Shown: positions 1,648-54,704 of the stretch, one piece after another
How positions within the stretch are numbered: position 1 is the stretch's first letter
How the letters are laid out: each line of letters starts with the position of its first letter
DNA from: a virus
IMG/VR virus record: IMGVR_UViG_3300046459_000436
Span: 16,674-80,673 of that record
Direction: 5' to 3' (one strand)
DNA: 64,000 bases
Notes under the pieces: generated by a model
Databases searched by the model: none
What the model was told of the DNA's origin: nothing
What the model saw: the letters and a program-made list of their open reading frames with translations, nothing else
Program-made: the position numbers and the translations under genes

Positions 1648-1662
1648 CCGCTCATGCACGTC

Positions 1663-1682: not shown

Positions 1683-1708
1683 AGTGGCTCTCTCTGTACT
1701 CTGGCGTT

Positions 1709-5038: not shown

Positions 5039-5055
5039 GACTCACCCCTTCCTGA

Positions 5056-5769: not shown

Positions 5770-6194
5770 TAGCTGCTGCCGGTAGTCCAGTGCTCGGGCA
5801 GCAGTGTCGGCGCGGGTTCGTCGACCGGCTCGGGCTCGGGCAGCGGCTCGGGGGTGCAGTCGCAGCCGGGCAGGTCCGCCTCGCTGGGCGCGGTGCAGCT
5901 GCTGGCATGGACGAGTGCGGCGGCGTCCATGTCGATGGCGTGCGGTCCGCAGGCGAAGACGGGGGTGGTGCACTCGTCGGCCTGCGGGAGCGGCCCGAAC
6001 TCGGGGGCCGGGAGCTGAGGGTCGGCGAGGAGGAGCCGCTCGTCGCGCTTCTCCTGTTCGAGGGTGATGTGCGCGGCGAGTTCGGCGGCGGTGAGGCGCC
6101 GCCGCCACTGCACGATCGCCCGGTCGGGGCAGGCCGTACACCGCGGGCCTGCGGGCGCCGGAGCGGCCGGGGTGGTGTCGGCAGGGCTGGTCAC
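5769..6194 (-). CDS. Hypothetical Cys-rich protein
   Basis: GAGGAGG RBS, TAATG coupling to the next gene, CxxC motifs. Confidence 0.6.
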   Translation of the reverse strand: MTSPADTTPAAPAPAGPRCTACPDRAIVQWRRRLTAAELAAHITLEQEKRDERLLLADPQLPAPEFGPLPQADECTTPVFACGPHAIDMDAAALVHASSCTAPSEADLPGCDCTPEPLPEPEPVDEPAPTLLPEHWTTGSS

Positions 6195-9323: not shown

Positions 9324-10022
9324 TCAAGCTGCGACCGATTCTCCAGGGGTGCCGTGGAGGGCATCGCGGAGCTTCTCCCACGCTTCACGGTCGGGCCATT
9401 CGGTGCCGCAGCCCTGACACTTGATGGCCTCCTTCCGGGTGGACGCGGTGAGTTGGCGTTTGCACGGGCCGTCAACGGTGAGGACCGGGCAGGCGCCAAT
9501 GCGGATGGGCCCGATCCTCCGATCCGGCGACAGAGCAGCCGTGCACTCGGAGTGCAGCCGCCGGATCTCCTCCACGTCCTGCCCGACCTCCGCGTACCGT
9601 TCGCACGCCCACCCGAGGTTGTTGGTCAGGAACTCGATCTGCTTGGGCAGGGATTGGCCGGCGTTGCCGCGCCACGGTGTGACCGTCCAGCCGAGGGTCT
9701 GCCGCCACGCGTCCTCAATTACCTGCAGACGGGTGGCGACTCCTCCAGCCGCGGCGAGGTTGAGGACTTCGGCGTTGGCGGGGATCGGCGGCACGCGCGA
9801 CCCGGTGGGCATCCCGGTTCCACGCCGGGAGCCCCGGACGAGCGCGGCGGTCGTGTTGACGCGGGCGAAGAGGGCGGGGAGTTCGGCGAGCCGCTTCCCG
9901 GTGCGGTCCTGACAGGGACGGCACGCCCAGCGGTCGGTCTCGTCGGCCCACAGGTCTTTGCTGCAGGCCACGCAGCGCGGCCACACGTAGCTGGAGTCTT
10001 CGGCGGTAGCAAGGTCGTGCAC
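9324..10022 (-). CDS. Zn-finger phage protein, possible late-gene regulator
   Basis: CVAC...CRPC and IGACP...C...CQGCG motifs; position before the late operon. Confidence 0.55.
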   Translation of the reverse strand: MHDLATAEDSSYVWPRCVACSKDLWADETDRWACRPCQDRTGKRLAELPALFARVNTTAALVRGSRRGTGMPTGSRVPPIPANAEVLNLAAAGGVATRLQVIEDAWRQTLGWTVTPWRGNAGQSLPKQIEFLTNNLGWACERYAEVGQDVEEIRRLHSECTAALSPDRRIGPIRIGACPVLTVDGPCKRQLTASTRKEAIKCQGCGTEWPDREAWEKLRDALHGTPGESVAA

Positions 10023-10052: not shown

Positions 10053-10391
10053 TCAATGGCTGATGTAGATGGTCGCCTTGGTGTGGGCGGCGCAGGCATC
10101 ACGGAGGCGACGCAGATAGTCGAGGGCGCCGTCGTAGTTGCCCCAGCCATTGGTGGGGTTCATGGCCTCGTACTTGGCGGGGTTGGCTTCCATATCCGCA
10201 ACGGCGCGGCTGAGGTCGCCGATGCAGTCGCCAGCCGTCTTGTCCTTCAACTCGGCAAGTCGGTAGCCGAGGGCTTCGGTCCACATGCTGGAGACGTTGG
10301 CGGTGTAGTTGCCGATGTCGGCGGGGCAGAACTCGTGGGGCTCGGGGCCGCCCGTGTCGACTGTGACGTAGAGGGCGATGTCGTAGCTCAC
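10053..10391 (-). CDS. Hypothetical phage protein
   Basis: MSYDI...NYTANVSSMW...NGWGNYDGAL; RBS. Confidence 0.65.
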   Translation of the reverse strand: MSYDIALYVTVDTGGPEPHEFCPADIGNYTANVSSMWTEALGYRLAELKDKTAGDCIGDLSRAVADMEANPAKYEAMNPTNGWGNYDGALDYLRRLRDACAAHTKATIYISH

Positions 10392-10762: not shown

Positions 10763-11600
10763 TCAGATGCGGGTGAGTCCGATGACGCTGGGAGCCCAGC
10801 CGCTCCACTCGCGCCACTCGGCGGGGTTGTTCAGGTCGGTCTCGGCGACGAGCATCGGCCCGCGCTCCTCGGTGAAGATCAGCGCGTAGATGTCACCCAG
10901 TCGATCACGGAAGCGGACGAGGATTTCGGGGGCCTCGGATTCGGCGCTCACGGCGGTCACCTTCCGATCGCGTTACCGGGGGCCATGCGGATGCGCCCGT
11001 CGGGTTCGTCGAGGACCAGCCAGTCGTGGTGCGGCTGGCAGTGGAACAGGCCGCGGACCTTGGGTTCGCCGCAGTACGAGGCGCGGGAGTCCCAGCCCGA
11101 TTCGCTGATCTGGTAGCCGCACGTCTGGCTGCTGCGCGGCGGCTCGCGGTCGAGGGTCTTCGCCACGGTCAGATGCCCTTGCGGAGGTGCTTGAGGTGCT
11201 TGGGCAGCTTCTTCCCGGCGTCGCGGACGGCCTCCTGGAGGCGGTCGTCTTCCTCGTTCTCGATGAGGATCCCGGCCCGGGACTGCTTGGCGGTGTTGTC
11301 GTACAGGTCGGCCTGCGCGCGACGGAAGTCGGCGAGGGCCTCGTTGTGGTCGGCGTATTCCGCGAGTTCGTCGCGGGTGGGCTTGGACATGGTGGTCTCC
11401 TAGTAGCTGGGCTTGATGCGGGTCGTGCCGAGGGGCGTGACGTGGCGGTGTTCGCCGTTTCGGTCGGCGTCGCGGATGGCTCGGTCGATTTCCTGCTGGG
11501 TCCACATGCACGCGTCGCGCAGGTGGGCGCGGAGGTTGGCCTCATTGAAGGACTGCCGGGAGTCGGGCGAGCTGATGACGTCGTAGTAGGCGGTGGGCAT
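10763..11600 (-). CDS. Four small hypothetical genes (10763-10960, 10957-11166, 11169-11390, 11400-11600)
   Basis: Coupled short ORFs with RBSs at the distal end of the tra operon. Confidence 0.55.
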
Positions 11601-11630
11601 TGCGTCCCCTCCTTGTGCGGTTGGCGGTGT

Positions 11631-12173
11631 TCAGATGTTGCGCGAGCCAGCGAGGTCGGCGGCCTGGTCCAGGAGGCGAAGGGGCACGGTGGGCCTGCCC
11701 CACGCGTCGTTGAATCCGGGCACGCTGTCCGCGTTGGTGAACTGCCGGCGGATGGCGTCCAGCAGAACGTCCAGCCCCTCGCTCGCCAGCCCGTAGTTGC
11801 CGCGGGCTTCCTTGTAGATCGCGGATTGCAGGCAGTCGGGGCCCGGCACGCTGGTCGTCGGGGTGTGGCCGCACCATCCGTCGCGGGTGAGCCGCTGGAG
11901 GGCCCGCTGGAGGAGGGCTGCGACGGGTGTCGGGTACAGGTCGACGGGCGTCCGGGGGGAGTCGACGGGGCCGCGGATGACGTCGGCTAAGTCGACGGGC
12001 TCGGTGGCGATGTGGGCGGTGTTGATGTCGTTGGCGAGGCTGGCTTCTTCGAGGCGGATGGTCATGGCCGCGTCCACGGCCGCCATCCGCGCTTCCAGGC
12101 TCAGTACCGGGGCGGGGGTGGTGCGGGCCGCGGGCTGAACCTGGGCGGCGAGGGTGACGGTCGTGGCGGGCAT
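11631..12173 (-). CDS. DUF6197-like protein
   Basis: LLQRALQRLTRDGWC...CLQSAI...VPGFND pattern; paralog at 46587-46967. Confidence 0.55.
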   Translation of the reverse strand: MPATTVTLAAQVQPAARTTPAPVLSLEARMAAVDAAMTIRLEEASLANDINTAHIATEPVDLADVIRGPVDSPRTPVDLYPTPVAALLQRALQRLTRDGWCGHTPTTSVPGPDCLQSAIYKEARGNYGLASEGLDVLLDAIRRQFTNADSVPGFNDAWGRPTVPLRLLDQAADLAGSRNI

Positions 12174-12176
12174 GGA

Positions 12177-13885
12177 TCAGCCTTCCTGGGACTTCGCGCG
12201 CTCGTCGGCTTCGCGGGTGATCCGGTCGGCTTCGGCGTGGTCGGCGGGGTCGCTGGAAAGGTTGAGTTTCACGGTCTTGACCAGGTCGCGGACGTTGTCC
12301 GCGCCCCAGACGGCGGGGTTGAGTTTCATGGCGGGTCTCCTATCGCTGGAAGGGGTTGTTGGCGCGCTGTCGTTCGCGGCGTTGCTGGACGGGGCAGGTG
12401 TCGGGGTGTTCGACGTCGCGCGGGCTGCAGCACCCGCAGTGGGGCCAGCGCGCGCGCTGGCCTTTGCCGCAGTGGTCGCACATGGTCAGTTGCCGAGGTG
12501 GTCGAGGCCGTGGCGGCGTTCCCACTCGCGGGTAAGGCCCTGGGCGACATCGCGGTTGCCGTCGAGCCCGGCGCGCTCGTAGACGTCCATGGCGTCGAGG
12601 AGTTCGGCGTCGGTGTAGTTGGGGATCGTCTTGTTCGCCCAGCTCTTGCCGGAGAAGTCGATGGCCATGGCGGTCAGGCCTTCGTGAGTTCTTCGGCGTA
12701 GAAGCCGATGTAGCCGCCGACGGCCTCGCGAACGCGGCCTTCGATTCCCTTGACGGCGATCAGGCCGCCGGACTTTGATCCGTCGTCAACGACCGTGCCG
12801 GTCTTGCCGTGGTGGGCGAGGTTGTCCAAGTTGGGGCGGCTGACGGTGACGCGGTCACCGGGCTGGAACTGCATGCGGGTCTCCTTAGCCCTGCGGAAGG
12901 AATGAGCAGGTGTTGGCGTGGTCCTGGGCCTGCTGCGTGATCTGGAAGTCGTAACCGCCACCGATGTTCGTGTCGCTGCAGCCGGTGCACCGCCAGCCGA
13001 GATAGGCGGCACCGTCCTCCTTGACGACGTTGACGTGGGCTCCGGATTTGTTCGGGACCGTGGAGAGGATCTTTGGTTCCATGGTGTTTCTCCTTGGGTT
13101 ACTGGGGCCGGACTGTCCGGCCGCCGAACCCCACACCGGTCGGGGCGTGTGGAGCACGGCGGGTGGGCAGGTCAGTACCAGGACCAGGGCTGACCGTTGC
13201 TGGCGTGGCGTTCGGCGACGACGGCGAGTTCGCGGGCGCTGACGGCCCAGAACGCGGGCATTCGGGGACTTGCTGCCGCCGTTCGGAAGATCTGCGCCAT
13301 ACGGGCCGCATCACGGACTGCAATGTCGAACGGGCCGTCGCCACGGTTGGCGTTGTGGAACAGCGGCTGAATGGTCCGCCAGTCTGCGGCGGGCACGATG
13401 TGGGCGATGTGCTGGCCGAGTTCGACCATTGCGGTTGCGGACCGGTAGGCGCCGCCGTTACTCCATCCCATGACGAACTCCTCTCAGGCGGCGCGTCGGC
13501 CGCGCTTGGGCTGGGTGGAGTAGTCGTTGAGGTTGCCGCCGCGAATGTTGGGCCCGTCGTCCTCGTTGAGCCATTCGCGGTACTGGCTCAGGGTCATGAG
13601 GCCCTTGCAGGGGGCGGCGTTGCGGTTGTCGTAGACGGGGCCGGCGCACGCCCACAGGTCGGGGGCGCCTTCGGGCAGGCCGGTGAAGGTCGAGATCTTC
13701 GTGAAGACGTGCTCGTCGAGGTACTGCCGAGCGCCCGGCCCGTTGTCCGACTTGATCGTGTAGTAGGTCTTGCCGAGCACGACCTTCTTCGCGAAGCGCT
13801 TGGCTTCGTTGCTGGCGCCGGACTTGTGGATGGCGTCGGTGAGCTTGCAGTCGAGGTAGTTGGTGGCGCGGTACCAGGTGCCCAT
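12177..13885 (-). CDS. Cluster of small plasmid-type ORFs (12177-12329, 12340-12483, 12486-12668, 12674-12874, 12885-13082, 13172-13471, 13484-13885)
   Basis: Each has a GGAG RBS; 12340-12483 is a small Cys/His-rich protein of the type seen in Streptomyces plasmid spread regions. Confidence 0.55.
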
Positions 13886-13984
13886 GACGGGCTCCTTTCG
13901 GGTTGGTCCGGGGTGATCCCCGGTTTTTGGGTGTGCTGAGGGAAGCCCCCGGCGGGGGCTGGTGGTTTGTGATGGTTTGTGGGG

Positions 13985-14150
13985 CGTACACCCCCCGTAC
14001 AGTGACCGCTATATGCCGGTATGCGGGGCGTACAGTCGGGGCGGTCAGCCGTACAGGTGGACGGCTCCAGGTGGCCGGTGAGCGGGGGGTGTACGGGTCA
14101 CATACCGGCATCTACCTGGGCAAACAGCCGCCCTGTACGGGGGGTGTACG
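13985..14150. repeat. clt-like locus: seven CGTACA repeats in a nested inverted repeat directly downstream of traB
   Basis: CGTACA at 13985, 13996, 14029, 14050; TGTACG at 14090, 14134, 14145; perfect 18-bp IR 13985-14002/14133-14150; 11-bp IR 14013-14023/14101-14111. Confidence 0.75.
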
Positions 14151-14155
14151 GCCTA

Positions 14156-16384
14156 TCAGGCAGCCTCCGGGGAGGCGAACTGGTCCCGCTTGAAGCCCTT
14201 CAGGCGCTTCCCGGCACCGAAGGTCACGATGTTCGTTGTTGTGATCCCATCCCGGCGCAGACGCTCCCGCAGAGCATCCACATCAACGCCCAGCTCCTCG
14301 GCCAGCAACTCAGCCGTCAGCCCCTGCGTCTCCGGAACCCCCAGCCGATCGAACACCGCCACCGCATCCCGGCGCATCTCCGCCGCACGCGCCACCGCCT
14401 CATCGACACGACTACGCGACGCCGCCTGACCCGTCAGCGTCCCGGCCTTCACCCGCAGGTCGTAGCCGCGCTCCACGATCTCCCGGAACTCCGGCAGCTC
14501 GATCACATCGGACTTCTGCGTGATGTGACCCGACTCCGCACCCTGGTCCAAGACCACGACACCCTTGTGGTGCTCCAGCAGCTTGTGCGGCGCCGCGCCG
14601 GCCTGCACGGCGTCGTCGCCGAGAACCATCCGCGCGGAGGCGTCGCCCTTGACCCGAAAGCAGGCGCGCTTCACGCACACCCCGCGCAGCTTGGTCGGGA
14701 CGCTGTCGGAGTCGGGGCGCTGGGTGATGAACACGCCCATGCCGCCGACGAACCGGGCCACGCGCACGTACCGGGCGAGGGTCTCGACCAGCACGTCCTT
14801 GCCGTTGCGGTGCTTCGCGCCCTTGCCGTCCTCGTCCTCCTCGACGACCTTGACGCGGGTGTTCGCGGCGGCGTCCAGGAGTTCCTGGAGCTCGTCGACG
14901 ATGAGGAGGGTGAGCCTCTTGTCGGGCTGCCGGGCAAGCGCCGGGGTGAGCTTGCCTTCGGGGCACTGCTGGGGGTCGGTCTCGGACAGGCTCTCCAGCT
15001 GCTCGCCGAGGTTCTGCATGCTGCCGATCAGGTCGTCCAGCACCTCGTGGACTTCGACGAGGGTGTCCGGCTTGGAGCCGGAAATGTAGGCGTGGGCGAT
15101 CTTCTTGAGGGCTGCCCAGTCCGGCCCGGACTTGCCGGTGATGACGATGATCCGCACGTAGGGGTCGAGGGCAGCTGCAGCAGCGATCAGCCGTGCCAGG
15201 TACGACTTGCCGTAGTCCTGCAGTCCGCCGATCAGCAGCGACGACCACAGCAGGTGCAGTGCCTGCCGGTCATGCCGGGCGTCCTGGCCGAGCGGTACGC
15301 CGTGCTGCCAGAAGTTCCACTCGGGGGCGTTGATCAGGGGGGACGGGGTCTTTCCGGCGCCGAACGGGTTGTCGGCGTCGGCGACCCAGATGGTGAATCG
15401 GCTCTCGTGCCCCTCGGCGCTGGTGTCCTTCTTCAGTTCGATGCGGGACGCCTTGACGCGCAGTGCGCCGGCGAGCGGTACGAGGCGGGCGATGGCCTGC
15501 TCTGCGGTGCGTCCGCCGGGCAGTTCGATGGTGGCGGTCCAGCCGGGGCCGTCGGTGCGCAGGCCGAGGACGCTGGTCTCTTCGCGGTCGGCCTCCTCGA
15601 TGATCTTCGCTTTGACGAGGGCGGTGACCAGGTCGTTCGCACCCCGCACCTGCACGTCCTCGGACTTCGTGAGCACGACCGGACCCGCAGCACTCGCGGA
15701 GGCCGCGGCGGCGATGGTGGCGGGCGACTCAGCGGCCAGCGTCACCGGAGACGACTCCTTGTCGTCGGCTTCGCGGTTCCGCCCCGCCCACCAGGCCGCA
15801 CCGAACCCTCCGAGGAGGACGGCGAGGAGGCCGAGGATGGGGTGCTGCATCTTCCCCAGCAGCATCCAGCCGGCCACCACGCCCGCGGCGACCATGGCGC
15901 ACCGACTGGCCTGCTGGGTGCGCTTGTGGCGCTTGATGTCCTTCTCGGTGACGTCGTCGTCGGCGTGCGGGAGGACGGGGCCGACGGTGACGCGCGTGGC
16001 GAACGCCTGGTTGAAGCGGTCCGCCTGCCCGGGGTGCCCCTGGTTGGCGGCGGTGGCGGCCTGCTTCTGCAGGTCCCGGACTTCGCTGTGGTGCTGGCGG
16101 ATGGCCTTGCGGTTCTCGGCAGCCCGCTTGTGGATGACGTCCTTGGCGAGGTTCTCCTCGTCGACACCTTCAAGGAGCACCCAGGCGCGGCCCTGCTGGT
16201 AGAGGGTCTGGCAGCCGCGCTTGGTCTGCGCCCACACGGTCAGCTTGACGACCGGCGGCGGGGCATCGGCGGGCACCGGCTTGAGGAGTACGTGGGCGGG
16301 CGGGTTGGTGGGCATGGGCGGGACGTGATTCTGGACCGGGATCTGGGGGCCCGCCGTCTCGGGCGGGGTGGCGTGCGTGGTCAT
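14156..16384 (-). CDS. traB: FtsK/SpoIIIE-family conjugative DNA translocase (TraB-like)
   Basis: 2 TM segments, Walker A LLIGGLQDYGKS, Walker B LLIVDELQE, TQRP motif, C-terminal wHTH-like region. Confidence 0.88.
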   Translation of the reverse strand: MTTHATPPETAGPQIPVQNHVPPMPTNPPAHVLLKPVPADAPPPVVKLTVWAQTKRGCQTLYQQGRAWVLLEGVDEENLAKDVIHKRAAENRKAIRQHHSEVRDLQKQAATAANQGHPGQADRFNQAFATRVTVGPVLPHADDDVTEKDIKRHKRTQQASRCAMVAAGVVAGWMLLGKMQHPILGLLAVLLGGFGAAWWAGRNREADDKESSPVTLAAESPATIAAAASASAAGPVVLTKSEDVQVRGANDLVTALVKAKIIEEADREETSVLGLRTDGPGWTATIELPGGRTAEQAIARLVPLAGALRVKASRIELKKDTSAEGHESRFTIWVADADNPFGAGKTPSPLINAPEWNFWQHGVPLGQDARHDRQALHLLWSSLLIGGLQDYGKSYLARLIAAAAALDPYVRIIVITGKSGPDWAALKKIAHAYISGSKPDTLVEVHEVLDDLIGSMQNLGEQLESLSETDPQQCPEGKLTPALARQPDKRLTLLIVDELQELLDAAANTRVKVVEEDEDGKGAKHRNGKDVLVETLARYVRVARFVGGMGVFITQRPDSDSVPTKLRGVCVKRACFRVKGDASARMVLGDDAVQAGAAPHKLLEHHKGVVVLDQGAESGHITQKSDVIELPEFREIVERGYDLRVKAGTLTGQAASRSRVDEAVARAAEMRRDAVAVFDRLGVPETQGLTAELLAEELGVDVDALRERLRRDGITTTNIVTFGAGKRLKGFKRDQFASPEAA

Positions 16385-16407
16385 GGCGGCGGGGCTCCAG
16401 GCTTGGG

Positions 16408-16947
16408 TTAGAAGTTGGTGAGGGTGTTGGCGGCAGCGGTGACGGCGGAGTTGGTGAGCTGCTTGATCAGCGGGCCGACGAACGTCCCGTCCAGGAGCAC
16501 CCCGAGCGCGACGAGCGTGATCGCCCAGCTGGCGGCGACCTTCCGGCCCTTGATGCCGATGAACACGATCACGCCGATCAGCATCAGGCCGACGATGCCA
16601 ACGCCGATCGTGCCGCCGCTGACGTTCGCCGGCGTGACGTTGTTGACGGCCGGGGTGACGTTCGTGTCGACCACGGGGGCGACGGACGGCTGGACGGCGG
16701 CCACGGTGACGACCGCAGCCGAGTGGTCGGCGGTGGCCGTGTAGTGGGTGGTGGGCAGGCCCCGGACGGTCATGGCGCGGGTGCCGTCGGCGAGGCGGAC
16801 GCTGGTGTCGGTGGCGGCCTGGACGGAGGTCACGGTCGCGGTGTGCTGGGTGGCTGCGGCGACCGCCGGGGTGGCGATCCCGAGCGCCGCCAGAGCAGCA
16901 CCCGACAGGGCCACGGAGCGGACGATACGGATGGACTGGCGGGACAT
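16408..16947 (-). CDS. Signal-peptide/membrane protein, putative spread (Spd) protein
   Basis: N-terminal signal peptide, two C-terminal TM helices; adjacent to traB. Confidence 0.6.
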   Translation of the reverse strand: MSRQSIRIVRSVALSGAALAALGIATPAVAAATQHTATVTSVQAATDTSVRLADGTRAMTVRGLPTTHYTATADHSAAVVTVAAVQPSVAPVVDTNVTPAVNNVTPANVSGGTIGVGIVGLMLIGVIVFIGIKGRKVAASWAITLVALGVLLDGTFVGPLIKQLTNSAVTAAANTLTNF

Positions 16948-16967
16948 GATGGGGACTCCTTCGAGGG

Positions 16968-18389
16968 TCAGTTCTGGTCGGTGTTTGAGGTGTTCTCGGT
17001 GGCGAGCCGACGACGTACATCGACGGCCTGCGCGCGCTTTGCGATGGGGTGGAACGGGGCGCTGTCGCCGCGTGTCCGGCGGGGCGGAATCGGCTTCGGT
17101 CGGGGACTGGTTCGGGGCTTCGCGGGAGAGGGGGATAGATGGGAGCTACGCTGCGCGTTCGTGACCTTGCTGGGTGTGTTCCCGGGGGCTTCTGAGAGGG
17201 CCGCTGCGACGCGTCGTGCGGCGACGTTGCGGGTGCGGATGACGTCGACGCTGTCGCCCGGGTCGGTGCCCTCGATGTCTCTGTAGGCGCGGATCCAAAC
17301 GGCTTCGGTCACGGTCGTCTCGCCGAGCGCGGCAGCCAGCTTCAGTGCGTGCTCCCACACCTCCTGGAACTCCTTAGCGCGGTCAGTGGCGAGCTTGTTC
17401 GCGGCTTCCTCGGCAGCCTTGAGATCCGCCGCCTTCGCGTCGTCGGCAGCCTTCTTCTCTGCGGCCTTCCCGGCCGCCGCGCGGGCCTCGGCCTTCTCCT
17501 TCGCCTTGCGCTCCCGACGGGTGAGCGCGCCGTCACGCTTACGGATCCGGCCGTGCTCGTGGAGATCCCAGACGCCCGGGCCGGCGACGGACGCGAACGC
17601 GGTACCGATGGCGGTCGCCGGGTCGAAGGCGTTCAGGCCGTGCCACAGGTTGACCCCGGCGGCGATGAACGCCAGCAGCCACGCGATGAGCCGGTAGTGC
17701 CAGTGCGGACGGTGCCCGGCGACCGCGGCGGCAGCACCCTTGAGGACGACCGCCGCACCACCTTCGAGCATGAGCGGGGCGATCACGAGCCACGGGGCGA
17801 CGGGGGTCCAGAACGCGGCGATCTGCACAGGCAGGGCGACGACGGCGCACACGATGTAGAAGCCGAGGGCGTACCGGCGCCACCGGGCGTCGGCGACGGC
17901 GATCTCCTTCGCCGCCTTGTCGGCGGCTTCCTGCTGAATCCGCTGCTCCTCAGCGGCGGACTGCGCTTCGTCGTCGGCCTCCTTGCGGGAGGCGGCGGCC
18001 TGCCGGTCGATCTCCTCCTGCTCGGCCTGGAGTTCGGCGAGCTTCCGGGCGTGCGCGGCCTGCTTCTCCTCCATGGCCATGCGGTTGCGCTCGTTGGCGA
18101 GCCGCAGACGCTCCGCCTCAGCCTCGGCCTTGGCGCGGATCGCGTCGGCCTCGGCGAGGGCCTTCACGCGGGCGGCCTCGACGGCGGCGGCGGTCTGGGC
18201 CCGGATCGCCTCGGCCTCAGCCTCGGCGCGCGGGTCGACGATGGGGACGGGAGTGGCGGCAGGCTCAAGCTCGGGGGCGGTCTGCTCGTCCTGGATGACG
18301 CCGTTGATGATCGGGAACGACTGCCAGCCCTCATACACGGGCACGGCAAGCCGCTTGGTGCCGTTCACCTGGGCCGGGTTGGCGCTCAC
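16968..18389 (-). CDS. DUF2637/SpdB-like coiled-coil plus 4-TM protein
   Basis: Long coiled coil, four TM helices, AGVNLWHG; upstream of traB. Confidence 0.7.
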   Translation of the reverse strand: MSANPAQVNGTKRLAVPVYEGWQSFPIINGVIQDEQTAPELEPAATPVPIVDPRAEAEAEAIRAQTAAAVEAARVKALAEADAIRAKAEAEAERLRLANERNRMAMEEKQAAHARKLAELQAEQEEIDRQAAASRKEADDEAQSAAEEQRIQQEAADKAAKEIAVADARWRRYALGFYIVCAVVALPVQIAAFWTPVAPWLVIAPLMLEGGAAVVLKGAAAAVAGHRPHWHYRLIAWLLAFIAAGVNLWHGLNAFDPATAIGTAFASVAGPGVWDLHEHGRIRKRDGALTRRERKAKEKAEARAAAGKAAEKKAADDAKAADLKAAEEAANKLATDRAKEFQEVWEHALKLAAALGETTVTEAVWIRAYRDIEGTDPGDSVDVIRTRNVAARRVAAALSEAPGNTPSKVTNAQRSSHLSPSPAKPRTSPRPKPIPPRRTRGDSAPFHPIAKRAQAVDVRRRLATENTSNTDQN

Positions 18390-18424
18390 GGGAGATCTCC
18401 TTGTCTGGTCGGGCGGTTCGGGGT

Positions 18425-18700
18425 TCAGGCGGTCGCGGTCTTGGACTGGCGCTGCTGCACCACGTACTGGCGGCCCAGCAGGGCGACCGTCAGCAGGGCC
18501 TTCGGGTTGAAGCGGGCGATGACCACGATCAGCAGCGCGGGTACCGTGATCCACGGCTGGTGGAGCATCCACACGGGCACGGCCAGCAGGGACGGCGCGG
18601 ATCCGAGGACGGCGACCAGCAGCACCCACAGGGCGACGGTCGACGCGCTGAGCCTGCGCGGCGGCGGGGTGGGGGCGGTCGGGGCGGCTGGAGTAGACAC
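18425..18700 (-). CDS. Small membrane protein
   Basis: Hydrophobic segments; in tra operon. Confidence 0.55.
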   Translation of the reverse strand: MSTPAAPTAPTPPPRRLSASTVALWVLLVAVLGSAPSLLAVPVWMLHQPWITVPALLIVVIARFNPKALLTVALLGRQYVVQQRQSKTATA

Positions 18701-18778
18701 GGGGGTTCCTTCCGGTGGTCGGGTCGGGGTTACTGCGGTCGGATCTCCTGGCGGCCCGTGCGGGACGGGCATCCAGGG

Positions 18779-19144
18779 CTACCGGCCGGCAGGGACGGTC
18801 AGGCCAAGGAGGTGGTACGGGAACGGGTCGGATTCGGTCCGGGCGCTGGCCCACTTGATCCAGTACCAGTGGAACGGGAACGACTCGACGCCCATCTCCA
18901 TGAGGGCGATCGCCCGGTGGTGCCCGTCGCCGACGTACACATCGAAGTACCGGTCGTCGACGCCCAGCAGGATCGGCACCTGAAGCCCGCGCACCGCGAT
19001 CGACGCCTTCAGCTCATCGACCTTCACGCGGTCCTTCCCGGGCCGGCCGAACTGGCGTCGGGCGTGATCCCACTTCCGGAACTCCGTCGGGTGGATCTGC
19101 TGGTCGTTGAGGAACGCGGTGGGCATCTGGCCGAAGTACTTCAT
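18779..19144 (-). CDS. Stand-alone ParB/Srx N-terminal domain protein
   Basis: DELKASIAVRGLQVPILL...VGDGHHRAIAL. Confidence 0.8.
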   Translation of the reverse strand: MKYFGQMPTAFLNDQQIHPTEFRKWDHARRQFGRPGKDRVKVDELKASIAVRGLQVPILLGVDDRYFDVYVGDGHHRAIALMEMGVESFPFHWYWIKWASARTESDPFPYHLLGLTVPAGR

Positions 19145-19284
19145 CGAGACGGACTCCTCTCAGGTCGGTGGTGCGGTCGGGTGGTGTACCGCCACCCCGG
19201 GCCGCGGGGGAACACCCCGGGGTGACGGCGGTTCTTGCCGGGCTTGACGGGTCGTCGGAGCGGTCCCCGCGAAACCCGGCGGTC

Positions 19285-20860
19285 TCAGGCGAGCCGAAGC
19301 TCTTCGTTGGCCTCGTACAGCAGCCGGTCGACCTGCTTGAGCAGCCGCTCCCGGGTCGTGGCGGCGTCGTCGCCGAGGTGCTGCACGGTTCGGAGCAGGT
19401 CGGCGGCCTCGGTCAGCCACTCGCGGGTCTGGCCGAGCGAGCCGAGCCGGTTGGCCGCGGTGTCGAGGAAGCCGATGAACCCGGCCTCGGTGCAGTCGTC
19501 GGCGTCGAGGGTGATACCGACGGCGTCGGCGATTGTTACGGCGTAGTCGGTGATCAGGGTGTCGATGGTGATGGGCGTGGTCTTCACTTCGGCTCCTCGA
19601 TGACTGGCGGCGGCGGAACGGGCGTCTCCTGGTTGGCGCCGTAGTCATCAAGCGGGGTGCTCACGACCGGCCTCCCTGCTGGCGTCGGGCGGCCTCGGCT
19701 GCCTTCGCGGCGGCCATGGCGTTGGCGATCCGCTGCTGGGCGAGCGCGTCGGCGGCCTGCTGCTCCGGGTTCTCGGCCACCGTCACTCACCCCCGCCCAC
19801 GAGAGCGGCGGCGGCGGTGGGCAGGTCCCGGTTGGCGGCGCTCAGGAATGCGAGCGTCATGGCCGGTGTCAGCCGGTACGTGGTCTGCCAGAACGCGCCA
19901 CGCTCGTCCCGGCTCGTCAGGGTGAGCAGGCCGCCACCATCGGGGGTCTCCTCGACCTTGAACATCGTCAGGTCGTCGATCAGCGGGGCCGGGGCCGCGG
20001 CAGTGGTGGGCTGGATCGCGTACACCGTCACCACCCCCGCACGGCGGCGGCCAGTCGACGCAGCGCCCTGGCGAACGCGAACCTCGGCGGCAGGTCCGGG
20101 ATGATCGGGGGGAGGCCGCTCATCGCGCACCCGCCTCGGTCTCGGCGAGCCGGTCCGCAGACTCCCGGAGCCTGGCCGCCCGCTCAAGCAGCACGAGCAG
20201 CTGCTCCCGAAGCGCAGGCCGCTCGCCAGCCGGAACCGTGAAGTAGTTCAGCCCGTTCTGCAGCTTCCGGGCCTCGTCCTGGACGATGCGCAACTCGGCG
20301 TAGAGGTCACTCGATGTCAACTGCTCGCTCATCGGACACCCCCGGGCTGCTCGCCGTGCTTGGCGGCGTTCCCCGACGCGTCCTGGTAGGCGGCCTGGTA
20401 GTGGCCGACGCTCCCGGCCGACGGGTGACCCGGCGTGGCCTGGATCTCCACGATCCGCGCGGCCAGACCGTTGGCACGGCTCTGCTCCTCGGCGGCGAAG
20501 GCCGGAGACGGAAGGTGGCTCACAGGTCCTCACCACCGGCGGCGAGCTCGTAGGCGACCTGCTCGGGGATCCGGGCAGCCCACGCGGAGTCCTGGAGGTC
20601 AAGCTCCTGGTACGCGGCCTCGATCTGCTCGGCCGGCGACAGGGTGGCGCCCGGGGCGCGCTTCGGCAGGCGGACGTGCGAGGCGGCGGCGTGCGCGGCG
20701 GCATCGGCCTGAGACATCGGGGCGGCGTAGGCGGTGGTCACTGCGACCACCGGTCCGTCGCGACGAGAAGCCGCTGGAGCGCCGCGAGACCCGAGGCGGA
20801 AAGGCCCGAGGCGACGACGATGGGGGACGGTACGGGGGCGGTGCGGGGGGTCGTGCTCAT
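19285..20860 (-). CDS. Cluster of short translationally coupled ORFs (including 19285-19587, 19661-19786, 20329-20523, 20520-20750)
   Basis: Chains of ATGA/GTGA overlaps following the Xis-like gene. Confidence 0.5.
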
Positions 20861-21063
20861 GACGCGAGCTCCTCGGGGGTCGGGTCGACGCCCGTCAGGG
20901 CGGCTTCGGGGACACGGATCGCTCCGCCGCCGCGCTGGGCGGGGGCGCCTACGGCCTGCGGCTTTCCGTACCGGATCGCCTCTAGGCGACCCTCCTGGAT
21001 CCACCGGTAGACGGTGGCGGGGTGCACGTTGAGGCGCTTGGCGACCTCCTTTACGCGCAGCAT
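20857..21063 (-). CDS. Excisionase-like HTH protein, first gene of the tra operon
   Basis: MLRVKEVAKRLNVHPATVYRWIQEGRLEA. Confidence 0.85.
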   Translation of the reverse strand: MLRVKEVAKRLNVHPATVYRWIQEGRLEAIRYGKPQAVGAPAQRGGGAIRVPEAALTGVDPTPEELAS

Positions 21064-21229
21064 GCGGGCTCCAATCGTTGGTTTCGCAACTGCCGCAACC
21101 ATAACTGTTTAATCGGAGATGTAGCAAGCTTCTGAGTCCATGAATGTCCGCCTCAGAGTCGCTGCGCGTAATCATCAAGGGCTTAAGGTTGAGGTCAGCG
21201 CCGCAACGACCTTCGAGAGGGGCCCGCCA

Positions 21230-21757
21230 GTGACTGCGAAGTGGACCAGTACGTCTACGCCATACCTGCTACCACGCAGGCCCGGACAGGTAGACGCCTG
21301 GACGCAGGAGGCCGGAGCGCGCGGGGGTCAGCGCCTCATCGAGGTGGCCATCAAGGTGCCGCCGGCCGAGGTTGCGGAATCCCTCGGTCTCGCCGTTGGA
21401 GAGAGTGCGGTAGCGCGTCGGCGGGTGATGACCCTCGACGGGCAGCCCGTTGAACTCACCGACTCGTACTACCCGCAGAGCGTTGCGGTGGGGACGCAAC
21501 TCGCTGAGCACGCCAAGATCCGGGGTGGCGCTCCAACACTCCTCCGCAGCCTCGGCTACGAGGTGCACCGAGTAGCCGAAGAGGTAGAGGCGCGGGCGAC
21601 AACGCCTGACGAGGCCGAAGCTCTCGGCCTTGAACCGGGAACTCCCGTACTCACGCTGCTGCGAGTGACCTACTCCTGCAGTGAACAACCCATCGAGGCA
21701 TCACTGATGGTCATGAAGGGCCCTCACCGCCTCCGGTACGAAATGGAGATCGGCTGA
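21230..21757 (+). CDS. UTRA-domain-only protein (no wHTH)
   Basis: PPAEVAESLGL...RRRVMTLDGQPVELTDSYYP...EEVEAR; similar to the C-domain of the next gene. Confidence 0.8.
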   Translation: MTAKWTSTSTPYLLPRRPGQVDAWTQEAGARGGQRLIEVAIKVPPAEVAESLGLAVGESAVARRRVMTLDGQPVELTDSYYPQSVAVGTQLAEHAKIRGGAPTLLRSLGYEVHRVAEEVEARATTPDEAEALGLEPGTPVLTLLRVTYSCSEQPIEASLMVMKGPHRLRYEMEIG

Positions 21758-21758
21758 C

Positions 21759-22520
21759 GTGGTCAAGCACAAGGACAAGCGCGCCGTGGCTGAGCGCATC
21801 GCCGCGAACATCAGATTCCTGATCATGTCCGGCGAGTGGGAGCCCGGAAAGAAGCTCCCGACCAACAGCGAACTCATGGCGGACTACGGCACATCCAACG
21901 TCACCGTGCAGCGCGCCCTCGGAATCCTCAAGGACGAACTCCTCCTCGAAGGCCGGGCAGGCAGCGGCGTCTACGTCCGCGCGCGGGCACCTCAGACCAT
22001 CATCCCAGCGTCCTACATGGCACCCTCGGACCCCGGACATCCATACCGGTGGGTCACCGAAGCCAGCAACCGCGACCAGCACGGAAGTAACAGGATCCTC
22101 CAGGTCGCCGAGGTCGAACCGCCCAAGCGCGTCGCAAAGATCCTGGGCCTGGAGCCCGGCGACACGGCGGTTCTCCGGACGCGGGTCGGCCTCCTGGACG
22201 ACGAGCCGGCGGAGATGACGTACTCGTACTACCCGGCCAACCTTGCGCGGGGTACGCGCCTCGCTGACCGTCGGAAGATCCCTGGCGGATCGCCGACGCT
22301 GCTCGCAGAGATGGGCTACCCGCCCCGCGAGCAGGAGGACGAGGTGGCCGCCCGGATGGCGACGACCGAGGAGTACGAGCTGCTGGAGATCCCCGGCGAT
22401 ACGCCAGTGATCGAGGTCTTCCGGGTGGTCTACAGCGACGGCCGGCGCCCGATCGAGGTGACCGTGATGGTGAAGCCCGGCCACCTGTACAAGATGGGCT
22501 ATCACCTGCCGGTTTCCTGA
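21759..22520 (+). CDS. GntR/HutC-family regulator (KorSA/TraR-like)
   Basis: IMSGEWEPGKKLPTNSELMADYGTSNVTVQRAL...GSGVYV plus UTRA; divergent from the tra operon. Confidence 0.9.
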   Translation: MVKHKDKRAVAERIAANIRFLIMSGEWEPGKKLPTNSELMADYGTSNVTVQRALGILKDELLLEGRAGSGVYVRARAPQTIIPASYMAPSDPGHPYRWVTEASNRDQHGSNRILQVAEVEPPKRVAKILGLEPGDTAVLRTRVGLLDDEPAEMTYSYYPANLARGTRLADRRKIPGGSPTLLAEMGYPPREQEDEVAARMATTEEYELLEIPGDTPVIEVFRVVYSDGRRPIEVTVMVKPGHLYKMGYHLPVS

Positions 22521-23073: not shown

Positions 23074-23405
23074 CCGACGGCGGCATCCCCGACTACTACA
23101 TGGAGCGCGCGCGCTTCCTCGCCACCGTCAAGGACATCGGCGAGGGGACCGAGGTGGCCGACGCGGCGCTCGACCTGATGATCAGGCTGGAGAGTTCCAT
23201 CCAGTCACCCTGGGCCGTCACGGACCCGTTCGCCGCCGAGCGCTACCTCGTGGCACGCGGAGCCGACCCGGACGTCGCATCCGAGGAGGGTGTCGTCTTC
23301 GAGATCCAGATGCGCGCCCTCGTCGGCATCGGCCTCGGACGCCCCGTCCAGTCGTTCGACGAGATCGCTGACTGGATCGCCGAACACGTCGACACCACCC
23401 CGTAG
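23070..23405 (+). CDS. Hypothetical protein
   Basis: ATGA overlap with the previous gene. Confidence 0.6.
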   Translation: MTDGGIPDYYMERARFLATVKDIGEGTEVADAALDLMIRLESSIQSPWAVTDPFAAERYLVARGADPDVASEEGVVFEIQMRALVGIGLGRPVQSFDEIADWIAEHVDTTP

Positions 23406-23406
23406 T

Positions 23407-23428
23407 TGTCAGTCCCTGCCCGTATCGT
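23407..23428 (+). promoter_or_regulatory. PafBC/RecA-NDp-type DNA-damage promoter upstream of tnpB
   Basis: TGTCAG-N10-TATCGT matches TGTCRG-N10-TANNNT. Confidence 0.65.
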
Positions 23429-23457
23429 CCACCGTGCCGCACCCGAGAGGAGGCCCC

Positions 23458-24975
23458 GTGCAGACCGAGATCCTGAAGGCGTTCAAGTTCGCGCTCGACC
23501 CGACCAGCGCTCAGATCGAGGCCCTGTCGAGGCATGCGGGTGCGGCGCGGTGGGCGTTCAACCACGCACTCGCGGCGAAAGTCGCGGCGCACGAGCAATG
23601 GCGTAGCGAGGTTGCCGCGCTGGTCGAGGCTGGCACTCCCGAGACGGAAGCGCGCAAGAAAGTGCGCGTGCCGATCCCGATGAAGCCGTCGATCCAGAAG
23701 GCCTTGAACCAAGTCAAGGGCGACTCGCGCACGGGAATTGACGGTGTGTGCCCCTGGTGGCATGAGGTCAACACCTACGCCTTCCAGTCCGCATTCATCA
23801 ACGCGGACCGCGCGTGGAAAAACTGGCTCGACTCCCTGTCCGGAAAGCGCGCTGGCCATCGAGTCGGCTATCCCCGATTCAAGAAGAAAGGGCGGACCCA
23901 GGACTCATTCCGTCTGCACCACGACGTAGACAAGCCAAGAATCCGGCTTGCTGGTTACCGTCGGCTGCGCCTGCCAACAATCGGCGAGATTCGGCTGCAT
24001 GACTCGGCGAAGCGTCTGTCACGATTGATCGACCGTGACAATGCGGTGGTGCAGTCGGTGACGGTGTCTCGTGGCGGTCATCGCTGGTACGCCTCCGTCC
24101 TGTGCAAGGTCGTCGTGGATGTCCCAGCGAAGCCGACTCGGCGACAGGCCGGGCGGGGCACCGTGGGAGTAGACCTCGGGGTGAAGTACCTCGCAGCACT
24201 GTCGCAACCGCTCACGGAAGGCAACGAGTCAACCCAACTAGTCCAGAATCCCCGTCATCTACGCCGCACGGAGAAGCGCCTGACGAAGGCGCAGCGCTCT
24301 CTATCTCGAACAGTCAAGGGTTCTGCGCGGCGAGAGAAGGCCAAGCGCCGCGTCGGCCGGCTGCACCACGAGGTGGCGGCACGCCGCGCAAGCGCCCTAC
24401 ATCAGGTGACCAAGCGACTCGCCACTGAATTCGCCGTGGTGGCCCTTGAGGACTTGAACGTCGCCGGGATGACGCGATCCTCTCGGGGCACCGTGGCGGC
24501 GCCGGGGAAACGGGTGCGACAGAAGGCCGGGCTGAACCGAAGCGTTTCGGATGCAGCTCTAGGTGAGTTCCGGCGGCAGGTCACCTACAAGACTTTCTGG
24601 TACGGGTCGAAGCTGGCGGTCTTGGATCGCTGGTTCCCGTCGAGTAAGACCTGTTCGATGTGTGGGTGGCGAAACCCAAACCTCACGCTCAAGAACAGGG
24701 TGTTCCACTGCGACAACTGCGAGACGGCCATGGACCGGGACCTGAATGCAGCCCGGAACATCGCGCGCCATGCGGTGCCGATTGATCAACACGTCGCCTG
24801 CGATACGCGGGAGACGAAAAACGCCCGTGGAGCCCCTACAAGACCGACCATCCCTCGGGATGGCTGGCAAGGAGCGTCGAAGCGGGAAGACGCGGCTCGC
24901 AAGGCCGCGCCACCCCAGCGGAGTAATCCGCTGGCACTCCCACCCGTGGGCCACGGACAGATCACGCTGTTCTAA
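23458..24975 (+). CDS. tnpB: RNA-guided endonuclease TnpB / Cas12-like (505 aa), no tnpA
   Basis: KAFKFALDPT N-terminus; RuvC-I GVDLG, RuvC-II ALEDL, Zn finger CSMC...CDNC, RuvC-III DRDLNAARN; catalytic D-E-D intact. Confidence 0.93.
   Translation: MQTEILKAFKFALDPTSAQIEALSRHAGAARWAFNHALAAKVAAHEQWRSEVAALVEAGTPETEARKKVRVPIPMKPSIQKALNQVKGDSRTGIDGVCPWWHEVNTYAFQSAFINADRAWKNWLDSLSGKRAGHRVGYPRFKKKGRTQDSFRLHHDVDKPRIRLAGYRRLRLPTIGEIRLHDSAKRLSRLIDRDNAVVQSVTVSRGGHRWYASVLCKVVVDVPAKPTRRQAGRGTVGVDLGVKYLAALSQPLTEGNESTQLVQNPRHLRRTEKRLTKAQRSLSRTVKGSARREKAKRRVGRLHHEVAARRASALHQVTKRLATEFAVVALEDLNVAGMTRSSRGTVAAPGKRVRQKAGLNRSVSDAALGEFRRQVTYKTFWYGSKLAVLDRWFPSSKTCSMCGWRNPNLTLKNRVFHCDNCETAMDRDLNAARNIARHAVPIDQHVACDTRETKNARGAPTRPTIPRDGWQGASKREDAARKAAPPQRSNPLALPPVGHGQITLF
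24790..24965 (+). ncRNA. Putative omega RNA scaffold plus guide overlapping the tnpB 3' end
   Basis: Hairpins CCATCCC-TC-GGGATGG, GCGGC-TCGCAAG-GCCGC, CCAGCGGA-GTAA-TCCGCTGG; GGGAG...CTCCC closing; boundaries approximate. Confidence 0.6.
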
Positions 24976-27047: not shown

Positions 27048-28397
27048 CTACGCGGCGCTCTCGCGGCCGGGGAGGCGCATCTCCAGCGTATGGCCGCCGT
27101 CGACGTCCAGGAGCTTCGCCAGCGGGGCCGTGACGGCCTCGTGGCGCGGGATGGCCAGGGTCTGCGCCTGCTGCGGGATGCGCCCGGTAGCGGCCTGCCG
27201 CGTCCCCCACCCGTTGCGCCGCAGCGTCGCCAGCGCGTAGAGCCGGAGCGGGATGAGGAGTGTCAGGTTCATCAGCGCGTACAGCGGCGCCGCGGCGAAC
27301 GTGAGCAGCCGGTCGGTACGCGGAACCTGGCCGGCTGAGCGGAGGTAGTGCAGCGACCGGAACCACGCGGCGGCCGAGACGTACACGGCGTACCAGGCGA
27401 ACACCGTCCAGGCGTGCGGGTTGGACGCGAATACGGCGAGGGCGACCAGCAGGGCCGAGGTGAACGCGATCCACGTGGCGAGCTCGACGAGGTTGAGCCA
27501 CCAGTAGGCGCGGCCCATCGAACTGACCTTCAAGGCCAGGAGGACGCCCTCGCGGATGAAGCTCTTCGTCCACCTGCATTGTTGAACGAGATACTTCCGA
27601 AGATTCTCCGGCACGTCGGTCCAGGCGACCGCGGTGGGCACGATCAGCGACTGGCCCTCCAGCAGGCAGTAGTACGTGAGCCTGCGGTCGTCGCCGAAGG
27701 TGCACTCCTTGCCGAGGAAGCGCTGCTGCAGGAAGTCATCGAGGTACTTCCGGACCGTCGAGCCGCGATAAAGGGCGAGGCTTCCGCAGGCGCACAGGAC
27801 GGAGCCGAGGCGGGAGTAGGCCACCCGCTCGCCGAGGAACGCATTCTGATACCGCATGTCGATCAGCCGGGTGAGCAGGTTCTTCGAGCGATTCGCAGCC
27901 AGGACCAGCCCGGTAACCGCGTGGACGCGGCGGCGGGCGAACGGCCGGGCGGCCTCCTCGACGGCGTGCTCGTCCAGGACGGTGTCGGAGTCGATGCACA
28001 GGTAGATGTCCGCGTCCTGGCGGGCGTTGAACCCGGCCGCCAACCCGTGGCGTTTGCCTCTGTTGACGGGGAAGCGGATGAAGTCCAGGCGGATCCCGGC
28101 GGCGGCGAACGCCGGGCGCAGCAGGTCGATGACGCCGGCGGCCGAGCGGTCCTTCGAGCAGTCGTCGATGACGGTGAGACTGTCGGGCCGGCGGGTCTGG
28201 TCGAGGATCGATTCCAGGCAGCGGCGGAGGGCGGCAGGCGATTCGTTGAAGGTCGTGACAACTCCGTGAATGACATGGCCGGTCGGCCCTGCCGGCTGCT
28301 GTGCGGTGGGTCTGCGGCGCCGCTTCATGGACGCGAGGAGCTTGATGGCGAGCAGGCTGCCCACGGCTATGCCGTACCAGCCCAGGTGGTTGTGCAC
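27048..28397 (-). CDS. Processive GT2 glycosyltransferase, hyaluronan synthase/NodC-like
   Basis: FNE, IDDCS, NRGKRH, IDSDT, LCACGSLALYR, TFGDDRRLT, QQCRWTKSF motifs and C-terminal TM helices ending NGWGTR. Confidence 0.88.
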   Translation of the reverse strand: MHNHLGWYGIAVGSLLAIKLLASMKRRRRPTAQQPAGPTGHVIHGVVTTFNESPAALRRCLESILDQTRRPDSLTVIDDCSKDRSAAGVIDLLRPAFAAAGIRLDFIRFPVNRGKRHGLAAGFNARQDADIYLCIDSDTVLDEHAVEEAARPFARRRVHAVTGLVLAANRSKNLLTRLIDMRYQNAFLGERVAYSRLGSVLCACGSLALYRGSTVRKYLDDFLQQRFLGKECTFGDDRRLTYYCLLEGQSLIVPTAVAWTDVPENLRKYLVQQCRWTKSFIREGVLLALKVSSMGRAYWWLNLVELATWIAFTSALLVALAVFASNPHAWTVFAWYAVYVSAAAWFRSLHYLRSAGQVPRTDRLLTFAAAPLYALMNLTLLIPLRLYALATLRRNGWGTRQAATGRIPQQAQTLAIPRHEAVTAPLAKLLDVDGGHTLEMRLPGRESAA

Positions 28398-54690: not shown

Positions 54691-54704
54691 CCGCCGGCCG
54701 CGGG

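Follow-up and report, generated by a model that had tools for sequence, protein, structure and literature searches.

A TraB/SpdB2-type conjugation cassette carried as an integral part of a temperate Streptomyces-type phage genome

The DNA analyzed here, a 64,000-nucleotide window covering positions 16674-80673 of the single 80,673-bp IMG/VR virus record IMGVR_UViG_3300046459_000436 (all coordinates below are window positions), carries a set of conjugative transfer genes of the Streptomyces plasmid type within a tailed-phage genome. The set forms a co-oriented string of minus-strand genes running from 21063 down to 10763, with a GntR-type repressor gene divergent from it, and includes homologues of the DNA translocase TraB and the spread protein SpdB2 together with a candidate clt transfer locus. 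The element as a whole is a complete siphovirus-like temperate phage, uniting terminase, portal, capsid, tape measure, endolysin and integrase genes in a single replicon, and all close protein matches point to a Streptomyces-like host. By analogy with characterized Streptomyces systems, we consider it probable that the module is a functional cassette for TraB-driven, clt-dependent movement of double-stranded DNA (dsDNA) between hyphae, with SpdB2 acting across septa, the GntR protein holding the operon in check and the Xis-like protein perhaps coupling it to excision. Module genes were called by GC3 frame plot and their domains assigned with Pfam (E 0.01), PHROG and NCBIfam. From the repressor to the clt candidate, the features are these (ORF, open reading frame; aa, amino acids):

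21759-22520, plus strand: GntR/HutC-type repressor with a winged helix-turn-helix (wHTH) and a UTRA domain (Pfam GntR 2.4e-16, UTRA 4.6e-22)
21140-21757, plus strand: UTRA-only protein, a 205-aa ORF with no HTH (Pfam UTRA 1.2e-24)
20857-21063, minus strand: Xis-like HTH_17/MerR-type protein, first gene of the operon (Pfam HTH_17 2.5e-12; excisionase families phrog_66 and phrog_2907)
20520-20750, 20329-20523, 20120-20332, 19783-20034, 19661-19786 and 19285-19587, minus strand: six small ORFs of 41-100 aa (GC3 frame plot)
18779-19144, minus strand: 121-aa protein (phrog_1033 5e-4; TIGR00180 1.1e-3, 18.7 bits against a cut-off of 58)
18425-18625, minus strand: 66-aa ORF just upstream of the SpdB2 homologue, with no Pfam, PHROG or NCBIfam match
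16968-18389, minus strand: SpdB2 homologue, 473 aa (BLASTP to pSVH1 SpdB2, E 3e-14)
16408-16947, minus strand: 179-aa protein whose translation begins with a signal-like segment and ends in membrane helices
14156-16384, minus strand: TraB-type FtsK-like dsDNA translocase, 742 aa (homology, fold and Walker motifs)
13886-14155, intergenic: clt candidate, the 270 bp just 3' of traB (repeats)

An earlier, sequence-only reading of this DNA had named the 742-aa protein TraB, and this identification is borne out by its matches to the FtsK/SpoIIIE family phrog_1358 (3e-25) and to the TraB of the Streptomyces plasmid pSVH1 (BLASTP, 28% identity over 372 residues, E 3e-25), by its fold, and by the Walker A (GGLQDYGKS) and Walker B (LLIVDE) motifs read in its translation. 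Hydrophobic helices at residues ~160-200 are followed by a motor containing both Walker motifs (~245-650) and a putative winged helix (~685-736). When an AlphaFold2 model of the protein (pLDDT 75.8) was searched with Foldseek, the top match was the FtsK motor (6t8b/2iut; E 1.7e-14, TM 0.63 to target) and the next was the conjugation coupling protein TcpA. The C-terminal helix-helix-strand-strand unit of the model (residues 685-736, pLDDT ~86-90) is plausibly what would be expected of the clt-recognition domain of TraB, and may bind DNA. Two more IMG/VR contigs, referred to here as G1 and G2, carry the module with TraB proteins 95% and 94% identical to this one, and a pattern scan of species-representative genomes yielded 26 Streptomyces/Kitasatospora loci (designated by L numbers, as are the plasmid and phage loci compared) with TraB 45-64% identical, of which 23 were long enough for their context to be read. 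Measured against its relatives, traB has a dN/dS of 0.17-0.20, indicating purifying selection.

In the 473-aa protein, a coiled coil rich in Ala and Glu at the N-terminus precedes a multi-pass membrane core, and the BLASTP alignment of the protein to the biochemically characterized SpdB2 of pSVH1 (27% identity over 323 aa) includes the transmembrane core. It had been labeled DUF2637/Spd-like; the Spd part of that label stands, whereas the DUF2637 part is weak: Pfam at E 0.01, DUF2637 included, gave nothing for this protein, and tblastn gave weak matches between it and the DUF2637 gene of the plasmid L001. SpdB2 homologues of 25-50% identity adjoin TraB in most of the genomic loci. Between spdB2 and traB, the 179-aa membrane protein sits at the position of orf108 in pSVH1; it is 84-94% identical in G1/G2 and has homologues of 35-42% identity in loci of the actinomycete integrative and conjugative element (AICE) type.

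A clt-like repeat locus had also been proposed, and the 270 bp that follow traB do contain one. The 13-mer CGTACACCCCCCG occurs there in three exact copies within 166 bp (13985-14150) and nowhere else in the window, two of them as direct repeats on the minus strand (14138-14150 and 14083-14095) and the third inverted (13985-13997). These are accompanied by GTACGCCCCG-like variants, and the region also holds a GC-rich hairpin with a T-run at 13944-13960. It is 97% identical across the three phage contigs, compared with a synonymous divergence of 0.07-0.16 in traB. The place and repeat style of the region fit a clt, and by analogy TraB would bind there.

On the other side of the operon, the GntR/UTRA gene is the counterpart of TraR of pSVH1 and KorSA of pSAM2, and the two Pfam matches bear out the description of it as a KorSA-like GntR gene divergent from the operon. 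The encoded protein is 29-34% identical to those of GntR genes beside TraB in Streptomyces plasmids and to the GntR proteins of the phage replicons pAmyja1 and pZL12, and its divergent position is the same as in pSVH1, the plasmids L001 and L002, and pZL12. The UTRA-only ORF is co-oriented with the repressor gene, ends one base before the repressor start codon, and may encode a modulator of the adjacent repressor; tandem GntR-like pairs also flank TraB in the AICE-type loci L021, L025 and L027. Because this ORF fills most of the interval separating the HTH gene from the GntR gene, only ~76 bp are truly intergenic, and not ~700 bp. A search for repeats in 21040-21780, a region made up mostly of the UTRA-only ORF, gave no clear operator candidate; a scan for sigma-70 promoters found none, and terminator-like sites were no commoner than in shuffled sequences. 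A GntR-wHTH-only segment lies in 54177-55538 (plus strand)/55281-55538 (plus strand), falls in the same PHROG as the module repressor, and also matches the N-terminus of the pZL12 GntR protein.

The Xis-like label given to the first gene of the operon is confirmed by its HTH_17 domain and its two excisionase PHROGs. The six small ORFs that follow occupy the place of spdB3/spd79 in pSVH1, and the three of them that were scanned (19285-19587, 19783-20034 and 20520-20750) had no significant match in Pfam, PHROG or NCBIfam. The ParB-N label proposed for the 121-aa protein fared less well: the phrog_1033 match speaks for it weakly, and the TIGR00180 match is below that family's cut-off. This protein has a 52% identical homologue in the prophage locus L018, and the 66-aa ORF beside it is 97-98% identical in G1 and G2.

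Taken in order, the module is collinear gene for gene with pSVH1, where traR is divergent from a series made up of small spd genes, spdB2, a small ORF, traB, clt and additional spd genes. Two other Streptomyces plasmids (L001 and L002) share this arrangement from traR to clt. It differs from pSVH1 in belonging to an 80-kb phage with no rolling-circle rep, and in having an Xis-like first gene, more small ORFs and the UTRA-only gene. Homology with pSVH1, pIJ101 and pSAM2 suggests how such a module could work. The GntR/UTRA repressor, perhaps modulated by the UTRA-only protein, would hold the divergent operon off; on de-repression, the Xis-like first gene may tie expression of the transfer genes to prophage excision, which the distant integrase would carry out. 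TraB would then act as a membrane-associated hexameric pump that reads the 13-mer repeats through its C-terminal winged helix and pumps the unprocessed circular phage genome into the adjoining hypha, and the SpdB2 homologue and small membrane proteins would pass the DNA over the septal cross-walls within the recipient mycelium. Here, binding of TraB to the repeats, the coupling to excision and transfer itself are all steps that we infer by analogy. Virion-free movement from hypha to hypha is plausible in view of the homology, the purifying selection on traB (dN/dS ~0.2) and the precedent of pZL12; that it would bypass receptor-level defenses is conjecture.

A narrower role would be that TraB and SpdB2 push replicating phage DNA through the septa of the same mycelium rather than between mycelia, after ordinary virion infection or induction, and so enlarge the lysogenized or lytic zone. 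The spd genes of pSVH1 are needed for spreading and not for primary transfer, a multicellular host makes movement from compartment to compartment valuable to a phage, and the module is located between early and late genes, all of which would suit such a role. Against this, TraB and clt are in pSVH1 the determinant of inter-mycelial transfer and both have counterparts here, and pZL12 is cited as conjugally transferable. SpdB2 homologues of the phages phiC31 and VWB have been proposed to spread phage DNA (Thoma et al. 2015, PMC4447253), and because these phages manage with SpdB2 alone, the full TraB-clt set suggests more than spreading. We regard spreading alone as unlikely.

The sequence-only reading had described a module with no integrase or Rep of its own, situated between early and late phage genes, and had allowed that it might prove to be an inserted AICE remnant with att ends. 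The first two points hold. No integrase or Rep domain was found in the 19 module ORFs scanned (the other four ORFs encode 41-70 aa), and the module has genes for RecT, a DnaB-type helicase and a C5-methylase at 28-51 kb on one side and those for the terminase large subunit (TerL) and portal at 5.0-2.0 kb on the other. A nested AICE, or the remnant of one, inserted into the phage with its own ends would account for gene content resembling the transfer and regulation half of an AICE, and for the GntR gene and the 179-aa ORF matching AICE-type loci best. No att-like direct repeats (>=16 nt, high identity) flank the module, however, only low-identity chance matches being found; its GC content is that of the phage, and the junctions between module and phage genes are common to G1, G2 and the prophages described below. 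Just downstream of the module, 10053-10391 and 9324-10022 fall in phage protein families. The module is not a chance insertion, because it is kept in two mosaic relatives and 10 chromosomal prophages; it is an integral part of the phage and not a separate inserted element, and an insert of the AICE kind seems to us very improbable.

As the record is a metagenome assembly, we also considered a chimera of a plasmid or AICE with a phage, which the data make hardly credible. In a rhizosphere metagenome run that is the probable source, read depth is uniform (138-200) over the module and both flanks, and so even over both junctions; independent Logan contigs agree with the assembly, and exact contigs for both the terminase side and traB are present in a run of a different study. 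The same linkage occurs in three independent viral contigs and in the chromosomes of isolates. As a separate observation, the depth of ~150-190 in the rhizosphere run is high for a Streptomyces element and suggests free replication or virions.

The two related viral contigs differ from the present phage outside the module: their terminase, portal and capsid proteins come from different families, and the portal of the window was not found in either. One of the two is classed as a provirus by IMG/VR. Judged from these comparisons, G1 and G2 are mosaic phages that have retained the cassette. The co-occurrence of traB with terminase, which had been suggested as a survey, extends beyond them to cellular genomes, where 10 of the 23 readable loci are prophages with TraB 8-20 kb upstream of, and in the same orientation as, TerL, portal, capsid and tape measure genes (L018, L020, L026, L028, L029, L030, L032, L033, L034 and L037); L033 comes from Streptomyces sp. 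NBC_01384, and L037 lies on the chromosome of Streptomyces sp. S186. At the other 13 loci no phage genes were found (in the 30 kb downstream for five and in 10 kb for the rest), and those non-prophage loci that were scanned encode either Prim-Pol, Xis and a tyrosine integrase or a DnaB_N-DUF3987 replication protein, as expected of the AICE type. The TraB subfamily is present in 12 of 401 sampled Streptomyces species genomes (E <= 1e-80). A more distant TraB-like gene, 27-29% identical, lies just before the terminase and portal genes in a second prophage of one of these genomes, and this prophage has a glycosyltransferase resembling the one encoded at 27048-28397 in the window. In Streptomyces sp. 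STR69, a second TraB-bearing prophage (L053/L054) opens with a 35% identical homologue of that glycosyltransferase; a glycosyltransferase and a TraB module thus recur together in these phages.

In a quick maximum-likelihood tree, the phage-borne TraB proteins form several basal lineages, the ten AICE-type proteins form one supported clade, and at least 4 switches between prophage and non-prophage context are needed. We claim no direction of donation between phages and AICEs because the root rests on three long plasmid branches and is unreliable. The context switches imply frequent exchange, and this counts for a different explanation, in which the module is passenger or re-purposed cargo captured from an AICE or plasmid, with some other role (for example arresting host growth in the kil/kor manner, keeping out related plasmids, AICEs or phages, or partitioning into spores) or none. 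The presence of the TraB subfamily in genuine AICEs that encode Prim-Pol, Xis and Int, the swapping of SpdB2 between close relatives, and the lone FtsK-like genes of obscure role in Mischief19 and Cluster J mycobacteriophages agree with capture of this kind. Cargo would nevertheless fit poorly with the purifying selection on traB, with stronger conservation of the noncoding repeat region than of synonymous sites, with the retention of the whole collinear set across mosaic phages with differing head genes and 10 prophages, and with the identical pre-terminase position in unrelated TraB lineages, and we think this explanation rather improbable, more so than a role in spreading alone.

The closest precedent in design is pZL12 (phage ZL12, GQ919031.1), a circular replicon of 90,435 bp that is likewise a tailed Streptomyces phage of the ~80-90 kb class. 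As here, a GntR gene is divergent from small ORFs, a membrane protein gene and an FtsK/SpoIIIE-like tra gene, and the set stands before the structural genes. The tra gene is cited as needed for conjugal transfer (Zhong et al. 2010, J Bacteriol 192:3747, as cited in PMC3583192 and PMC4487206). The pZL12 set (a 398-aa membrane protein, a 766-aa ORF and a 725-aa FtsK/SpoIIIE-like protein) differs in that an additional ORF, the one of 766 aa, separates the membrane protein from Tra, and its Tra and membrane proteins have no detectable similarity to those of the module: comparisons of the TraB profile with pZL12.71c (hhalign, E 0.084) and of SpdB2 with pZL12.73c (BLASTP, E 0.018) were not significant, and the GntR protein alone matches (29%). 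pZL12 is moreover a plasmid prophage with ParA/ParB, whereas the present phage has tyrosine integrases and its relatives are chromosomal prophages. In view of pZL12, the novelty that had been claimed for the arrangement was overstated; what is new is an integrative phage lineage with a pSVH1-type cassette.

A second relevant replicon is pAmyja1 of Amycolatopsis japonica (NZ_CP008954.1), a 92.5-kb circle deposited as a plasmid that contains a full tailed-phage genome. Its structural module is shared with the present phage (TerL 72%, capsid 64%, portal 59% and tail tube 48% identical; head and tail genes 30-72%), and at 90095-92539 and 1-3612 (L011/L012) a 417-aa SpdB2-like gene, a small ORF and a 737-aa ORF follow one another, with a GntR gene in divergent orientation beside them. 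The 737-aa ORF encodes a GKS motif, has no Pfam match and gave a non-significant hhalign comparison to the TraB profile (E 0.044); it may be a very divergent transfer ATPase. In pAmyja1 this cassette comes after the tail and lysis genes, whereas here it comes before the terminase.

AICEs of the pSAM2, SLP1 and pMEA300 type share with the present element control by a KorSA-like GntR protein and integration by a tyrosine integrase, and the AICE-type loci L021, L025, L027 and L038 have Prim-Pol, Xis and Int beside a TraB 45-56% identical. AICEs are 9-24 kb long, lack virion genes, and have their own Rep beside int and xis (PMC2440964, PMC3218068); here, in contrast, there is a full tailed phage with the integrase 31 kb from tra. 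Surveys of AICEs have set aside loci without an Int-Rep-Tra set as possible remnants, prophages or other islands. Other deposited phages have FtsK-like genes standing alone (Mischief19, Cluster J mycobacteriophages and large Bacillus phages). In phiC31, VWB, Mischief19 (gp79) and the Cluster J mycobacteriophages there are single SpdB2 or FtsK-like genes only, not detectably similar to the SpdB2 and TraB of the module and without the set of GntR, SpdB2, TraB and repeats. The solitary gene of Mischief19 (MK686071.1, L056), a cultured Streptomyces phage, lies at the genome end (66357-68252) and encodes a 631-aa FtsK-like translocase that is 29% identical over 225 aa to pSVH1 TraB, with no Spd or GntR annotated nearby.

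Several findings count against a working TraB-clt transfer cassette. The Pfam family FtsK_SpoIIIE (PF01580) does not match TraB at E 0.01, the NCBIfam model plasmid_TraB (NF041214) reaches only 29.9 bits (E 2e-7, over 78 residues) against a cut-off of 800 bits, and a 26-sequence profile of the TraB family found nothing at E 0.01 among PDB sequences; by these sequence measures the protein belongs to a divergent subfamily and is not an equivalog of canonical TraB. The SpdB2 of G1 is only 37% identical, with a dN/dS of ~1 at saturation, so the SpdB2 part of the module is being swapped among relatives rather than strictly conserved. The repeat unit, 13 nt long and containing GTAC, is unlike published clt and TRS motifs, and none of the clt repeats quoted for pIJ101 or pJV1 corresponds to it. 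Neither megablast of the module nor tblastn of TraB and SpdB2 had a match in 50,697 phage records, so that no cultured virion-forming phage is known with this module except pZL12, and the Tra of that one cultured exception is not detectably similar. Finally, for the recipient, conjugation could come at a high cost if the incoming 80-kb phage also started lytic growth.

Weighing these points, we still favor TraB-driven transfer between hyphae, and beyond it a broader possibility can be put forward tentatively: these elements may be a recurrent lineage of temperate Streptomyces phages for which TraB, SpdB2 and clt provide a second route of infection, independent of virions and of phage receptors, by which the lysogen would pass its excised prophage to neighboring hyphae, perhaps the main one where packaging is throttled or lost. 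If this is true, the elements would be intermediates between phages and AICEs and a probable source of some AICE transfer modules, or the reverse. The transfer routes of phages and of conjugative elements are commonly regarded as mutually exclusive, and in reviews of phage-plasmids virions are the only means of transfer described (PMC12282955, PMC10879196). Because conjugation in Streptomyces needs one protein and a short DNA site, a phage can add it cheaply. The design of pZL12 is not a one-off: rhizosphere and soil metagenomes contain integrative phages in which a pSVH1-type cassette stands just before the terminase, and ~10 sequenced Streptomyces strains, including several cultured isolates, show the same arrangement. 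No account of TraB/SpdB2 cassettes within integrated Streptomyces prophages came to light in our searches of the open literature. The TraB subfamily is common to phages and classical AICEs and its prevalence is modest, somewhat less than half of the examined loci being prophages. The arrangement raises the questions of whether prophages spread without virions past adsorption-level resistance and of how AICEs and phages exchange modules.

The terminase gene (3525-5045, minus strand; assigned by alignment to the TerL homologues of L037 and pAmyja1) has a feature that bears on the importance of such a route. These homologues align to the annotated ORF only from residue 53 (the K-S of GGAAGGGKS, Walker A), and the N-terminal 55-60 residues of the homologues, as far as GGAAGGGK, match another reading frame, which reaches a stop four codons later. 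The site of the frame change, at the 5' end of the gene (4880-5045), reads G GGA AAA, and an independent assembly of the probable source run is identical base for base over 4597-5953. The change may reflect programmed -1 slippage or a broken terminase, and if the defect is real the TraB route would be the element's only exit from the host.

Downstream of the clt candidate, the minus-strand string continues with the following genes:

13484-13885, minus strand: conserved 133-aa ORF at the position of spd198 in pSVH1, with no family match
13172-13471, minus strand: DUF7739 protein (Pfam DUF7739 1.6e-23)
12885-13082, 12674-12874, 12486-12668 and 12177-12329, minus strand: four small ORFs
11631-12173, minus strand: DUF6197 protein, 180 aa (Pfam DUF6197 1.5e-14; phrog_16237)
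10763-11600, minus strand: four small ORFs of 65-73 aa, with no Pfam match

The 133-aa ORF is 83-85% identical in G1/G2 and 38-39% identical in L020, L022 and L037. Homologues of the DUF7739 gene and the next four ORFs (12177-13471) are scattered among AICE-type and prophage loci, and a DUF6197 protein comes after TraB in the prophage-type loci L018, L028, L029, L030, L032 and L034. Among the last four ORFs, that at 11169-11390 has homologues (52-57%) in the prophage-type loci L018, L028 and L032 and in no AICE-type locus, with a weak tblastn match in the plasmid L002; these four probably belong to the small-gene region of the phage itself and not to the transfer module.

The phage as a whole has a GC content of 65-72% and almost all of its genes on the minus strand, with the major capsid and tape measure genes in the 16.7 kb of the record that precede the window. 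Because positions 1-127 and 80547-80673 of the record (the latter being window 63874-64000) repeat exactly, the assembly is circular or terminally redundant, at ~80,546 bp; a 127-bp end overlap is the signature of such a molecule assembled with k=127. The other principal phage genes of the window are as follows:

1963-3528, minus strand: portal protein (Pfam Phage_portal 4.1e-30)
27048-28397, minus strand: family-2 processive glycosyltransferase, 97% identical in G1 (13320-14666)
52531-53889, plus strand: tyrosine integrase, 31 kb from the module (phrog_1 8.2e-22; Phage_int_SAM_3 8.6e-5)
62713-63519: Amidase_2 endolysin

No ParA/ParB pair was found among the ORFs scanned, which are part of those of the 80 kb, the weak ParB-N-like ORF of the module being the only candidate. 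A second tyrosine-integrase-like gene (58872-59915, plus strand; phrog_1 1e-14) lies ~5 kb from the main integrase, and a lower-GC island at 22.5-27 kb, between the repressor and the glycosyltransferase, holds a 561-aa ORF (23290-24975, plus strand).

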